Of a stretch of DNA of 64,000 nt, positions 37,520 to 42,711 are shown in pieces. Below the pieces are notes generated by a model. The model ran no database searches, was not told where the DNA came from, and worked only from the letters and a program-made list of their open reading frames with translations. Numbering within the stretch: the stretch's first letter is position 1; the number at the start of each line of letters is the position of its first letter. Source of the stretch: Gammaproteobacteria bacterium (GTDB lineage Bacteria > Pseudomonadota > Gammaproteobacteria > Ga0077536); assembly GCA_050247235.1 (NCBI GenBank), contig JBFWUN010000008.1, forward strand, positions 11,219-75,218, given 5' to 3'. The position numbers were made by a program, and so were the translations under genes.

Positions 37520-39319
37520 GTGGACGAAAGCCCTGCTGGAACGCCTCCCGCCCGCTACGCCACCCTCTTCAAACCCGCCGACGGGATGCAGCCGGCGCCC
37601 AACCTCGTCGATTACGCGGCGACGCGTGCGGCTTTCTCGTGGGATGCCGCGCGCGCGCGGCTCGACGGTCTGCCCGGCGGACGTGGCTTGAACATCGCGC
37701 ACGAAGCGGTCGATCGCCATGCCGCCGGACCGCTCGCCGCGCATGTCGCGTTACGCTTCATCTCGCGTGACGGCCGCCGCCGCGACTGCACGTTCGCCGA
37801 CCTGCGCGCGGAGACCAACCGTTTCGCGAACGCGCTGCGGGCACTCGGCGTCGCCCCCGGCGAGCGCGTGTTCGTGCTCGCCGGTCGGATCCCGGAACTG
37901 TACGTGGCCGTGCTCGGCGCGCTGAAGGCGGGCTGCGTGGCTTCGCCGCTGTTCGCCGCCTTCGGTCCGGAGCCGCTGTGCACGCGACTCACGCTCGGTG
38001 ACGCGCGGGTGCTGGTGACCACGGAATCACTGTATCGGCGCAAGATCGCGGCGCTGCGCGATCGCGTGCCGGGGCTGCGCCACGTGATCCTCGTGTCGGA
38101 CAGCGCGACGCCCACCACTGTCCCGGATACCTGCGACTGGACGCGAACGGTTGCGGCACAGTCCCCCGGGTTCCAGATCGGCACCACCTCGCCCGAGGAC
38201 ATGGCGCTGCTGCATTTCACCAGCGGCACCACGGGCCGTCCGAAGGGTGCGGTGCACGTGCACGCGGCGGTCGTCACGCACCACGTGACGGGCTTTTACG
38301 CGCTCGATCTCCATCCGGGCGACGTGTACTGGTGCACCGCCGATCCTGGCTGGGTGACGGGCACGAGCTACGGCATCATCGCGCCGCTGACGAACGGCGT
38401 GACCAGCGTGGTGGTCGAAGCCGAGTTCGATGCGCAGACGTGGTACGACGTGCTGGAACGCGAGCAGGTGAACGTGTGGTACACCGCGCCGACTGCGATC
38501 CGCATGATGATGAAGCTCGGGTCGTCGGCGGTGCGGGGCCGGGATCTGCGCGCGCTGCGCTTCATGGCGAGCGTCGGCGAACCGCTCAACCCGGAAGCCG
38601 TCGTGTGGGCCGTGGAGGCGTTCGGACGGCCGTTCCATGACAACTGGTGGCAGACCGAAACGGGCGGAATCATGATCGGCAACTTCGCCGGGCTGCCGGT
38701 GAAACCCGGGTCGATGGGTCTGCCGCTTCCCGGCATCGATGCGGCGCTCGTCCACCGTGACGCCGAGGGACGCCTGGTCGTCATCGAGGCGGCCGACACG
38801 CAGGGCGAACTGGCGCTGCGCCGGGGCTGGCCGTCGATGATGCGCGATTACCTGAACGAACATCCGCGCTACGAGAAATGTTTCGATGGGGAGTGGTACC
38901 TCACCGGCGATCTCGCGCTGCGCGACGCCGACGGCTACTACTGGTTCGTCGGCCGTGCCGACGACGTCATCAAGTCCTCCGGTCACCTGATCGGTCCGTT
39001 CGAAGTGGAGAGCGCCCTGATGGAGCATCCGGCGGTCGCCGAGGCAGGTGTGATCGGCAAGCCGGACCCGGTGGCGGGCGAGATCGTGAAGGCCTTCGTC
39101 GCGCTCAAGGCGGGGTATGCCGCGGACGAAGCGCTGCGCCGCGCGTTGCTCGGCCACGCGCGCACGCGCCTGGGCGCGGCGGTGGCGCCGAAGGAAATCG
39201 ACTTCCGCGCGAACCTGCCCAAGACGCGCAGCGGCAAGATCATGCGCCGGCTGCTGAAGGCCCGGGAACTCGGGCTGCCGGAGGGCGACCTGTCCACCCT
39301 GGAGAGCGACGAGCGATGA
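37520..39319 (+). CDS. Acetyl-CoA synthetase-like AMP-forming ligase
   Basis: Lies in the frame of ORF 37337..39319. GTG 37520 sits behind AGGAGG; ATG 37586 is an alternative. Motifs [57 protein letters not shown] and [11 protein letters not shown]. Confidence 0.85.
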
Positions 39320-40302
39320 CCACCAAGCCCCGCCTGGACCACGCCCACCTGCTGCACCTGCTCGGCACGATGCTCCGCATCCGCGCGTTCGAGTCGAAAT
39401 GCGCCGAACTCTACCAGCGCCAGAAGATCCGCGGCTTCCTGCATCTCTACGACGGCGAGGAAGCGATCTCCACGGGCGTGATGGTCGCGTTGCGCCCGGA
39501 GGATTCGGTGGTCGCCACCTACCGCGAGCATGGCCAGGCAATCGCGCGCGGCATCCCGCTGACGGCGCTGATGGCCGAGATGTACGGCAAGGTGGAAGGC
39601 TGCTGCCGCGGGCGGGGCGGCTCGATGCACCTGTTCGATCGGAGTCGCCGCTTCTTCGGTGGCAACGCGATTGTCGGCGGCGGACTGCCGCTGGCGGTCG
39701 GAATTGCGCTTGCCGATCACCTGCGCGGGACGGCGGCAGCCACGGCCTGTTTCTTCGGAGAAGGCGCGGTGGACGAGGGTGAGTTCCACGAGAGCCTCAA
39801 TCTCGCGGCGCTGTGGAAACTGCCGGTACTGTTCGTGTGCGAGAACAACCTGTACTCGATGGGTACACCCGTCGCGATCGCGGAGTCAGTCACCGATATC
39901 GCCGCCAAGGCCGCCGGTTACGGCATGCCCGGGGTGGCCGTGGACGGGATGGACGTCGTCGCGGTCGAAGTCGCGGCCGCGCGCGCCTTGGAGGCGATCC
40001 GCGCCGGCGGCGGCCCGCAGCTGCTGGAATGCCGCACGTATCGCTTCCGTGCCCACTCGATGTTCGACGCCCAGCTGTATCGCTCGAAGCAGGAAGTCGA
40101 GGACTGGAAGGCGCGCGACCCGATCGCGCGCTTCGAGACGTGGCTCACCGACAGCGGGCTGGTGTTCGCGGACGAGGTGCAGCGGCTCGCGGCCGCCGCG
40201 GACGCCGAGGTGGATGCGGCGGTCGCATTCGCCGAGGCCGGCACGTGGGAGCCGGTGGAAGACCTCACGCGCTTCGTCACCTTGGAGGCGGTGCCGACAT
40301 GA
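39316..40302 (+). CDS. Thiamine-diphosphate-dependent 2-oxoacid (pyruvate/acetoin-type) dehydrogenase E1 alpha subunit
   Basis: Lies in the frame of ORF 38878..40302. ATG 39316 forms an ATGA overlap with the acs-like stop. YREHG, and the TPP motif [31 protein letters not shown]. Confidence 0.88.
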
Positions 40303-41285
40303 GCGCGGAGACCATCACCTACCGGGAAGCCTGCAAACGCGCGATCCGCGACGCCCTCACGCACGACCCGCGCGTGTTCCTGATGGGCGAAGACGTCGGA
40401 CGCTACGGCGGCTGCTACGCCGTGACCAAGGGATTGCTGGAGGAGTTCGGCGACTCGCGCATCCGGGATACGCCGCTGTCCGAAAGCGCGTTCGTCGGCG
40501 CCGGTATCGGCGCTGCGATCGCCGGCCTGCGCCCGATCGTGGAGATCATGACCGTCAATTTCAGCCTGCTCGCGCTCGATCAGATCGTGAACAACGCGGC
40601 GACGATTCCGCACATGTCCGGCGGCCAGTTCGCGGTGCCACTCGTGATCCGCATGGCAACGGGCGCGGGGCGTCAGCTCGCCGCGCAGCACTCGCATTCC
40701 CTCGAGGGCTGGTATGCCCATGTGCCGGGCCTGATCGTGCTCGCCCCGGGGACGGTCGAAGATGCACGCCACATGCTCGCACCGGCGCTGGCGGATCCCA
40801 ATCCTGTGCTGATCTTCGAACACGTGATGCTCTACAACAGCGAGGATGCGCTCGATCCCGCGGTGACCGGGGTCGACATCCGTTCCGCGAAGATCCGGCG
40901 CGCCGGACGCGATGTCACGCTCGTGACGTATGGCGGCAGCCTGCCCAAGACGCTGGCGGCCGCCGACAGCCTCGCGGCGGAGGGCATCGAGGCCGAAGTC
41001 GTCGACCTGCGGGTGCTGCGCCCGCTCGACATGGATACTGTCGCCGCGTCGGTCGCGCGCACACACCGCTGCGTGATCGTCGACGAGGGCTGGCGCAGCG
41101 GGTCACTCGCGGCCGAGATCGGTATGCGCCTCGTCGAGAACGTGTTCTTCGAACTGGACGCGCCGCTCGCCCGCGTCTGCAGTGCGGAGGTCCCGATCCC
41201 GTACGCCGCGCACCTTGAGCAGGCGGCGCTGCCGCAGCCCGGGGCGATCGCGGACGCTGCGCGTGCGCTGGTGAAACCCGCGTGA
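40299..41285 (+). CDS. 2-oxoacid dehydrogenase E1 beta subunit
   Basis: Lies in the frame of ORF 39813..41285. ATG 40299 forms an ATGA overlap. [38 protein letters not shown] is typical of E1 beta. Confidence 0.88.
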
Positions 41286-42478
41286 CCGATTTCCTGATGC
41301 CGTCGCTCGGCGCCGACATGGTGTCCGGCATCCTGGTCGAATGGCACGTCGAGCCGGGCGCCAGGCTGCAGCGCGGCGACATCATCGGTGTGGTGGAGAC
41401 GGAGAAGGGCGCGATCGACATCGAGGTGTTCGAGGATTGCGTCGTCACCGAGCTCGTCGTCGCGCCGGGCACGGAGGTGAAGGTCGACGGCGTGCTCGCC
41501 CGCTTGCAGGTGGCCGGTGACGTCCTGTCGCCTGTGGCGGCATCCGCTGCACCACCCCTGCCGCGTGCGCCGCGCGGGCCACCCGCGGCCCCGATCCCAC
41601 CCGTCGAAGGCGCGAAGCCGGCAGTGCGCGCGCCGTTACCGGCCACCGGGACTCTGGCGAGCCCGGCGGCGCGCCGACGCGCGGTCGCGCTGGGCGTCGA
41701 TCTCGCCGGCGTGCAGGGCACCGGCGTGGGCGGCGCCGTGTGCCTGGCCGACGTCGAGCGCATCGCGGCCGCGGCGCCCGCGGCCGCCGCACGCAAACCC
41801 CGCGGCGGCTTCGATCCGACCGCGATGCGCCGTGCGATCGGCCACGCGATGGCCCGTGCGAAGCGCGAGATCCCGCATTACTACCTCACCCACGCGATCC
41901 CGCTCGGCGCCGCACTCGCGTGGCTGGCCGGGTTCAACCGGTCTCGCGCGGTGACGGAACGCCTGCTGCCGGCCGCGCTGCTGCTGAAAGCAACGGGCCT
42001 CGCGGTCGCCCGGCATCCCGAACTCAATGGATTCTTCGAGCACGACGCTTTCCGCCCCGCGCGCGGGGTGCATCTCGGATGGGCCATCGCGCTGCGCGGC
42101 GGCGGGCTCATTGCACCCGCGATCCACGACGTCGATCGCCGGCCGCTGCCCGAGCTGATGGCCGCACTGCGCGACCTCGTGCAACGCGCGCGCGGTGGCG
42201 GCCTGCGCAGCTCGGAGCTGATGGACCCCGGCCTCACGGTCACCAGCCTCGGCGAGCGCAGCGCGGACACCGTCATTCCCGTGATCTACCCGCCGCAGGT
42301 CGCCGTCATCGGTTTCGGCAGCGTCGTGGACCGCCCGTGGGTCGTGGCGGGTGCGGTGACCGCACAGCCGGTGGTCAATGCGAGCCTCGCCGCCGACCAC
42401 CGTGTCAGCGATGGCCACCGCGGCGCGCAACTGCTGGCGGACATCGCGGACCGACTGCAACACCCGGAATCGCTATGA
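41282..42478 (+). CDS. Dihydrolipoamide acyltransferase E2 (lipoyl domain, subunit-binding domain and catalytic domain)
   Basis: 398 aa. The GTG start overlaps the E1 beta stop (GTGA). Lipoyl-lysine context [13 protein letters not shown], a Pro/Ala linker, the PSBD-like [23 protein letters not shown] and catalytic DHRVSDG. Confidence 0.88.
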
Positions 42479-42711
42479 AAGACCCTGACATCCGCGCGCT
42501 CGTTGCCGACGTGCTCGGCGGCATCGCGCCCGAAGCCGATCTCGCCTCCGTCCGCGACGACGAAGACCTGCGGATGGCGTTCGATCTCGACTCGATGGAC
42601 TTCCTGAATCTCGTGGTCGGATTGCACGAACGCACGGGGGTCGACGTGCCGGAGGCGGACTACCCCAGACTGTTCACGCTCGGAGGAATCGTCGCGTACT
42701 TCGCGAACTGA
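42475..42711 (+). CDS. Stand-alone acyl/peptidyl carrier protein (phosphopantetheine-binding)
   Basis: 78-aa product inside the frame of ORF 41740..42711. ATG 42475 forms an ATGA overlap with the E2 stop. FDLDSMDFLNLVVGLHERTG matches the carrier-protein DS(L/M) helix-II motif. Confidence 0.7.
   Translation: MKDPDIRALVADVLGGIAPEADLASVRDDEDLRMAFDLDSMDFLNLVVGLHERTGVDVPEADYPRLFTLGGIVAYFAN

Follow-up and report, generated by a model that had tools for sequence, protein, structure and literature searches.

A conserved low-oxygen-linked operon that joins an AcsA-type ligase and pyruvate dehydrogenase E1/E2 subunits to a dedicated acyl carrier protein

What does an acyl carrier protein (ACP) do at the end of an operon for the E1 and E2 subunits of a 2-oxoacid dehydrogenase? 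The question is raised by a stretch of 64,000 nucleotides from a Gammaproteobacteria bacterium (GenBank assembly GCA_050247235.1, contig JBFWUN010000008.1, positions 11,219 to 75,218 of the forward strand), called the window in the following, which carries five plus-strand genes at 37520-42711 in the order ligase, E1 alpha, E1 beta, E2 and ACP. Comparison with related loci reveals a conserved module, linked to low oxygen and devoid of E3, in which the ACP is translated and obligatory. The window itself matches contig JBFXCG010000003.1 of a Gammaproteobacteria metagenome-assembled genome (MAG), GCA_050182445.1.

The first gene of the operon (37520..39319) encodes an AcsA-type AMP-forming acetate ligase, of 599 aa when read from GTG. 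It is followed by the genes for a thiamine diphosphate (ThDP)-binding pyruvate dehydrogenase (PDH) E1 alpha (39316..40302, 328 aa), for E1 beta (40299..41285, 328 aa), for an E2 dihydrolipoyl acyltransferase with lipoyl, subunit-binding and catalytic domains (41282..42478, 398 aa) and for a dedicated ACP of 78 aa with Ser40 in a DSMDF motif (42475..42711). Consecutive genes are joined by 4-nt overlaps, ATGA at 39316, ATGA at 40299, GTGA at 41282 and ATGA at 42475; neither promoter-like nor terminator-like sites were detected inside 37200-42900. The original prediction, made from the letters and their translations, had placed the four start/stop overlaps exactly there, and its domain calls for all five proteins were confirmed by Pfam and NCBIfam profile searches. 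The ligase GTG at 37520 is preceded by an AGGAGGA Shine-Dalgarno sequence; an alternative ATG at 37586, the start chosen in the public gene call, would give a protein of 577 aa, and translation from either codon is possible.

The ACP open reading frame (ORF) is clearly a real coding gene under protein-level selection. Its GC content at third and second codon positions (0.82 and 0.37, respectively) follows the coding pattern of the genome, it scores 32.3 bits with PF00550 (PP-binding; cut-off 20.8), and an alignment of 27 diverse members shows 20 invariant columns, including the serine of DSMDF, while identity across phyla ranges from 42 to 78%. The AlphaFold model is a four-helix bundle with a mean pLDDT of 97.1, in which helix II spans residues 40-54 and begins at Ser40, and its best structural matches are type II ACPs, with TM scores up to 0.86. 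The hallmarks of a type II ACP are therefore present, namely PP-binding domain, serine at the start of helix II and four-helix fold; profile, fold and conservation agree with the original assignment of the last ORF to the phosphopantetheine-type carriers, and the serine of its DS(M/L) motif, whose conservation had been singled out for checking, is invariant in the family alignment. The protein is distinct from the housekeeping AcpP used in fatty acid synthesis, since every NCBIfam ACP model stays far below its cut-off (16-25 bits only, against cut-offs of 65-146). Its family is large, with 875 homologues in a 90% clustered collection and 943 representative clusters at 50% identity (E <= 1e-10). 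Some longer representatives were also fetched: P0350 looks like a frameshifted read-through; P0325, of 239 aa, has a C-terminal extension read by eye as an OsmC/Ohr-type peroxiredoxin domain; the remaining ones have C-terminal extensions without assignment. Lipoylated proteins serve as reductants of OsmC/Ohr enzymes.

A scan of one genome per species with the ACP found at least 583 loci that encode a relative, and the best 80 of these were retrieved. Among the 56 in which the sequence extends 5.3 kb or more upstream from the ACP gene, 55 contain ligase, E1 alpha, E1 beta, E2 and ACP genes in this order, and in 20 of the 24 shorter loci E2 lies directly upstream of ACP. The neighbourhood survey proposed with the original prediction thus reveals that the carrier protein co-occurs with the ligase/E1/E2 set. 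The 4-nt E2/ACP overlap recurs in 43 of 78 loci (55%), the ACP gene never adjoins the ligase gene where E1 and E2 are present, and outside the five genes no neighbour is common to more than 11 loci. The hosts belong to Alpha-, Beta- and Gammaproteobacteria, Acidobacteriota, Acidimicrobiia (Actinomycetota), Nitrospirae, Myxococcota, Pirellulales (Planctomycetota) and Binatia. Six of six plasmid or chromid records, from Methylocystis rosea, Burkholderia savannae, Rhodococcus sp. DK17, Leisingera methylohalidivorans, Photobacterium and Cupriavidus, carry the full cassette, down to 42% ACP identity (by tblastn for two unannotated records); horizontal movement is indicated by its plasmid location in Methylocystis, Burkholderia, Rhodococcus, Cupriavidus and Leisingera.

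The only broken cassette among the 56 loci, L077 (8211-12581), lies on a 1.8-Mb contig of an Acidimicrobiales MAG and consists of the genes for ligase, ACP and PpsA, the phosphoenolpyruvate (PEP) synthase, flanked by hemerythrin, Zn alcohol dehydrogenase and P-type ATPase genes.

The link to low oxygen, which the original prediction had put as FNR control, is supported by box enrichment in related loci together with a bona fide FNR gene in the island. A candidate FNR/FixK-type box, TTGATCGCCGTCAG, is found at 37451..37464 on the plus strand, 69 nt upstream of the ligase GTG, with two mismatches; it is not significant alone, since the window contains 11 matches of this quality where 8.6 are expected. 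In the related loci, the density of perfect TTGAT-N4-ATCAA boxes is 0.319 per kb within the 330 nt that surround the ligase start and 0.008 per kb elsewhere, an approximately 40-fold enrichment, and a box with at most two mismatches is located upstream of the ligase in 29 of 59 loci, mostly at -45 to -126. The FNR-type regulator of the window (48985..49716, plus strand), identified by Pfam, annotation and motif reading, has the C12-x2-C15-x5-C21 arrangement, C114 and an ETVSR recognition motif. Cassette neighbours in other organisms include USP, Hsp20, GroEL, PpsA, PfkB, CBS proteins, DosS/DosR-like pairs and otsB, and at least one hypoxia/dormancy marker was found by tblastn near the cassette in 33 of 55 large loci.

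A further trait of the whole family is the missing E3. In agreement with the original prediction, no E3, lipoate enzyme or phosphopantetheinyl transferase was evident in the window by Pfam calls and annotations, which cover most large ORFs, and by motif scans. Among 87 loci a class-I disulfide-reductase (E3-type) motif occurs in a single one, 7.9 kb from the cassette; the missing E3 is therefore characteristic of the cassette and no accident of the window. Reoxidation independent of E3, by AhpD/CMD or OsmC proteins, was considered and rejected: a CMD gene is present in the window, but neither type recurs beside the cassette. As for a consumer of the acyl-carrier, no nonribosomal peptide synthetase (NRPS), polyketide synthase (PKS) or condensation enzyme was found in the window or among the conserved neighbours of the 80 loci, and no fatty-acid, polyketide or lipoate gene was found as a conserved neighbour of the cassette.

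The E1 and E2 subunits retain the features of PDH to different degrees. E1 alpha matches E1_dh at E 1.3e-89 and reaches 430 bits with TIGR03182, the PDH E1 alpha equivalog (cut-off 393.85); E1 beta contains Transket_pyr and Transketolase_C and scores 386 bits with NF006667 (cut-off 321). In E2 the Biotin_lipoyl, E3_binding and 2-oxoacid_dh domains are each above the Pfam cut-off, and they correspond to a lipoyl domain with K42, a subunit-binding domain at residues 125-159 and a catalytic domain at 180-398 with the DHRVSDG motif; no NCBIfam equivalog cut-off is reached by this protein, whose nearest solved relatives are mammalian PDH E2. K42, D372-H373-R374 and D377-G378 are identical in all 54 members. 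Where canonical subunit-binding domains have the Arg of GTGPDGRI, 49 of the 54 have Ala or Ser, and the residue preceding the lipoyl-lysine is His or Gln, not Asp. Read against human E2p, the C-terminus falls short of that of canonical E2 by two to three residues. On a Leisingera methylohalidivorans plasmid (L088, 6845-8842) E1 alpha and E1 beta are annotated as a single fused protein of 665 aa. Three alphaproteobacterial loci, L054, L056 and L072, contain a further E1 alpha/E1 beta(/E2) set, with 28-40% identity, at most 10 kb from the cassette, which is therefore an extra paralogous set there.

The ligase, with AMP-binding and AMP-binding_C domains (Pfam), scores 889.7 bits with the acetate--CoA (coenzyme A) ligase equivalog NF003313, well above the cut-off of 729, as its original description as Acs-like would have it; its best solved match is 9g79_B (E 3.7e-165), and it has about 55% identity with the 572-aa AcsA. 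Residues were counted in an alignment of 53 cassette-family ligases, with equivalents given in Salmonella Acs numbering. The Trp of the acetate pocket (W377), the equivalent of the catalytic Lys609 (K573) and that of Gly524 in the pantetheine tunnel (G488) are present in all 53, and R548 is likewise invariant. Conversely, the conserved set formed in Acs enzymes by Arg191, Arg526 and Arg584, whose roles in the CoA/thioester step are taken from PMC10455477, is incomplete. The equivalent of Arg191, a CoA-phosphate contact, is Arg in the window ligase, yet in only 29 of the 53 members. The position of Arg526 is occupied by Leu490, in the SGHLIG sequence of the A8 motif (window 38987-38989), and Leu is found here in 52 of 53 ligases, the sole Arg belonging to the Mesorhizobium locus L058. 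In true Acs enzymes Arg526 stabilises the thioester-forming conformation, and its substitution in a methanogen Acs lowers kcat 34- to 680-fold (PMC10455477). Judged from the kept and the replaced residues together, the protein resembles a CoA ligase whose second half-reaction has been systematically changed.

How these parts may work together can be outlined as follows. The cassette would represent a self-contained accessory module for acetyl handling, switched on at low oxygen, with the whole operon transcribed as one unit from an FNR-type promoter. By homology, the heterotetramer-type E1 is expected to decarboxylate pyruvate and to reductively acetylate the lipoyl-lysine of E2, which could then hand the acetyl group to the phosphopantetheine thiol of the ACP, rather than or besides CoA, as in the Qnc, Scl and plu2796 systems described below. 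The ligase would interconvert acetate and the acetyl-thioester pool, either bringing acetate in or, at high AMP, releasing it with recovery of ATP. Since the cassette never carries E3, dihydrolipoyl-E2 would be reoxidised by the housekeeping E3 of the cell. Acylation of the ACP by E2, by the ligase or by both had been suggested in the original prediction; the interpretation given there stands as far as a conserved, translated ACP in a low-oxygen-linked module without E3 is concerned, while its statement that no characterised system is known does not hold for the underlying logic.

About an even chance is given to the view that acetyl groups of the module are carried by the ACP, with E2 as the likelier partner. 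Besides the precedents described below, E2 is favoured by a mirror-tree co-evolution test with 39 sequences. Here the distances among ACPs show their highest rank partial correlation with those of the E2 catalytic domain (0.26, a value reached by 3 of 500 permutations), followed by the E2 lipoyl domain (0.22), the whole ligase (0.13) and its C-terminal domain (-0.02); the result may be read as a weak pointer to E2 over the ligase.

A number of observations weigh against the ACP as acetyl acceptor from E2. The mirror-tree signal is confounded by gene adjacency and by the fast evolution of both proteins, and recombination blocks may explain it, because adjacent genes correlate best in general. 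The catalytic residues of E2 are all canonical, with no sequence sign that CoA use has been lost; CoA reaches the E2 active-site channel from inside the hollow core, a route that is sterically awkward for a 9-kDa protein. Fusions that would betray a partnership are lacking: neither E2-ACP nor ligase-ACP fusions occur in 78 loci, and none of the top 120 E2 homologues is fused to an ACP. On the ligase side, the equivalent of Arg584, which contacts the CoA 3'-phosphate, is Arg in 53 of 53 sequences, and that of Arg194, another contact of the same phosphate, in 49. It can be argued that the ligase still uses CoA, because of its identity with AcsA and of the kept CoA 3'-phosphate arginine; near-orthology to AcsA and retention of these residues mean that the acetyl-CoA pool is clearly involved. 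Moreover, L077 retains an intact DSMDF in its ACP with no E1 or E2 within 10 kb, which points to the ligase as a partner of the ACP.

The same features can be read in terms of an ordinary accessory PDH plus Acs, making or using acetyl-CoA in hypoxia, with an ACP that neither enzyme acylates and that has another role, for instance as carrier of acyl chains derived from that acetyl-CoA or as a structural or regulatory subunit. This explanation is possible but less likely. It fits a ligase above the acetate--CoA ligase equivalog cut-off that matches a solved AcsA and keeps the CoA 3'-phosphate arginine throughout its family, an E1 alpha above the PDH equivalog cut-off, a catalytically canonical E2, and the labels acsA, pdhA and so on that the annotation pipeline PGAP gives to family members. 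However, it offers no reason for an ACP family restricted to the cassette and placed right after E2 in 55 of 56 loci from several phyla, with translational coupling in 55%, it finds no conserved fatty-acid, polyketide or lipoate gene in the neighbourhood, and it leaves the family-wide change of Arg526 to Leu and the lack of E3 unexplained. Alternatively, the ligase and not E2 could be the partner of the ACP, loading acetate on holo-ACP or running in reverse (acetyl-ACP + AMP + PPi -> acetate + ATP), with E2 using CoA. L077, where ligase, ACP and PpsA are kept without E1/E2 within 10 kb, would be accounted for in this way, as would the Leu in 52 of 53 ligases, the Arg191 equivalent that is Arg in only 29 of 53, and the recurrence of the AMP-forming neighbours PpsA and the PRPP-synthetase-like protein. 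This is unlikely, in view of the invariant Arg584 equivalent and an identity of about 55% with a real AcsA, of the partial correlation of -0.02 between ACP and the ligase C-terminal domain, and of an ACP gene that is never beside the ligase gene when E1/E2 are present; L077, for its part, is a single case from a metagenome bin.

A reading that would employ both enzymes is a fermentative module for ATP recovery in oxygen-starved or dormant cells, closed on a private carrier instead of the CoA pool: E1/E2 would convert pyruvate to acetyl-S-ACP, from which the Leu490 variant of AcsA would then form ATP (acetyl-S-ACP + AMP + PPi -> acetate + ATP + HS-ACP). PEP synthase, often encoded nearby, would likewise run as PEP + AMP + Pi -> pyruvate + ATP. 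The proposal is speculative and rather improbable. Hardly any credence is given to an acetoin (aco) cluster with E3 in trans and a carrier ORF that arose by chance or is untranslated. E3 is indeed absent, and E1 alpha/beta are of the heterotetramer type as in aco clusters; but the AcoC model NF011457 gives 46 bits against a cut-off of 307 and matches residues 3-158 (lipoyl/linker) only, the catalytic domain of E2 is a full 2-oxoacid_dh, E1 alpha passes the PDH equivalog, and the ACP ORF shows coding GC3, an invariant serine, 42-78% identity across phyla and a fold predicted with a pLDDT of 97. An aco cluster with an untranslated carrier ORF is already refuted by these conservation data; nor were two further findings made that could have overturned the original prediction, namely an ACP gene not conserved next to E2 or the loss of its serine. 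The reading adopted here, at the strength given above, remains that of an ACP that carries the acetyl groups of the module, with E2 more likely than the ligase as its partner.

The surroundings of the operon in the window correspond to a stress island. A tRNA-Leu(CAA) gene (34763..34849, plus strand) marks the boundary between housekeeping genes and the island, which may have integrated at it; upstream of the tRNA there is ordinary housekeeping DNA (tgt, queA, secDF, purT). A phosphoribosyl pyrophosphate (PRPP)-synthetase-like protein (35353..36333, plus strand) is a recurrent cassette neighbour, in 10-11 loci; its gene and that of a divergent 352-aa protein (HGDLRPEHL, no Pfam match) are directly upstream of the operon (35353-37368), and the latter is found beside the cassette in 6 loci. 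On the other side, convergent with the operon, a GroEL paralogue (Cpn60_TCP1, 541 aa) is encoded on the minus strand (42755..44380) with no GroES beside it, and it is a neighbour in 9-10 related loci; the box scan gave an FNR-like box with one mismatch, TTGATCGGCCTCAA, at 44520..44533 (plus strand), about 140 nt upstream of its start. A DosS-like GAF/PAS HisKA_3 sensor histidine kinase (46484..48091, plus strand) and a NarL/DosR-type response regulator with Response_reg and GerE domains (48096..48818, minus strand), both assigned from annotation and Pfam, complete the regulatory equipment; the kinase is 99%, and not 100%, identical to its counterpart at 14010-15617 of L001, on an otherwise matching contig, so that the two may belong to near-identical assemblies. 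Further on, positions 51519-60156 encode a thiolase-like/DUF35 (ChsH2 OB) pair, a CMD-family protein, an MscS channel, OtsA, OtsB and a GH15 glucoamylase/trehalase, which is a trehalose and osmotic-stress block. A beta-CASP nuclease is also encoded in the island.

The cassette travels with hypoxia/dormancy genes in phyla as distant as Proteobacteria and Actinomycetota. Its linkage is invisible in annotation because the parts are labelled separately, as acsA, pdhA, "dihydrolipoamide acetyltransferase family protein" and "acyl carrier protein". If the ACP is an acetyl acceptor or donor, E1/E2 carrier priming, so far a curiosity of secondary metabolism, becomes part of core low-oxygen physiology, and a new route connects pyruvate, acetate and carrier-bound acetyl groups; if, in addition, the ATP recovery on a private carrier were true, this would be the first 2-oxoacid dehydrogenase E2 of primary metabolism to acylate a carrier protein. 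If the ACP is neither, it is nonetheless the sign of a PDH specific to hypoxia with an obligatory subunit that awaits explanation. Either outcome is directly testable in cultured carriers, among them Hydrogenophaga taeniospiralis, Rhodococcus sp. DK17 (plasmid pDK1), Methylocystis rosea GW6 and Burkholderia savannae.

Literature searches for the five-gene cassette found no description of it, and the combination of E1/E2 and a carrier with an AcsA-type ligase, in a hypoxia island and without an NRPS/PKS consumer, is apparently without described counterpart. Its parts have well-known relatives. The alphaproteobacterial/mitochondrial-type PDH encoded by pdhA-pdhB-pdhC-lpd has the same domain architecture of E1 alpha, E1 beta and E2; in contrast, the cassette is without lpd, its E2 is below equivalog cut-offs, with the Arg of GTGPDGRI lost and the residue before the lipoyl-lysine changed, and ligase and ACP are added. 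The ligase resembles AcsA (NF003313, 9g79), with about 55% identity and with the acetate-pocket Trp, the catalytic Lys and the Arg584 equivalent kept, and differs from it by Leu at the Arg526 position and by the fact that its gene always heads the E1/E2/ACP operon. As for the genomic context, the Burkholderia cenocepacia lxa locus and DosR-type regulons have the same kind of neighbours, i.e. universal stress protein (USP), Hsp20, GroEL, a GAF kinase with a NarL-type regulator, FNR, PpsA, PfkB and trehalose genes. The cassette was not recognised as a part of the lxa locus itself: as far as the lxa paper is covered by a term search, it has acetate kinase and phosphotransacetylase and no mention of PDH, acetyl-CoA synthetase or ACP.

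The remark in the original prediction that no characterised system of such architecture is known does not hold for the logic of the cassette, since carrier priming by E1/E2 with E3 in trans has been described for QncN/QncL/QncM, SclQ1-4 and plu2796. In Streptomyces, QncN/QncL/QncM (naphthyridinomycin, quinocarcin) and SclQ1-4 (scleric acid) are described as making a C2 glycolicacyl unit and attaching it to a nonribosomal peptide, and a later paper terms this carrier-protein priming. These pathways resemble the cassette in that their genes for E1 alpha-like (ThDP) and E1 beta-like proteins come together with those for a lipoyl/E2 acyltransferase and a small ACP, and no E3 is listed among the Qnc/Scl pathway genes. 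However, the Qnc/Scl E1s are described as taking the C2 unit from ketose phosphates and feeding an NRPS, whereas the E1 alpha of the cassette scores as a true pyruvate dehydrogenase; the cassette is without NRPS/PKS, is led by an AcsA ligase and is found in hypoxia/stress islands of many phyla, the comparison being one of descriptions and not of sequences. The pepteridine cluster of Photorhabdus luminescens contains plu2796, an E2-like protein fused to thiolation (T) and condensation (C) domains, for which the authors propose that the carrier arm could be primed in place of CoA, while E3, which the pathway lacks, is supplied by the host. The likeness consists in PDH-like E1/E2 with a carrier and in the absence of E3 from the gene set; the difference is that the plu2796 carrier forms one polypeptide with E2 and precedes a condensation domain, whereas the ACP of the cassette is a separate protein (78 loci) and no condensation enzyme accompanies it. 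The fusion found in plu2796 provides a Rosetta-stone argument that an E2 and a carrier can be partners.

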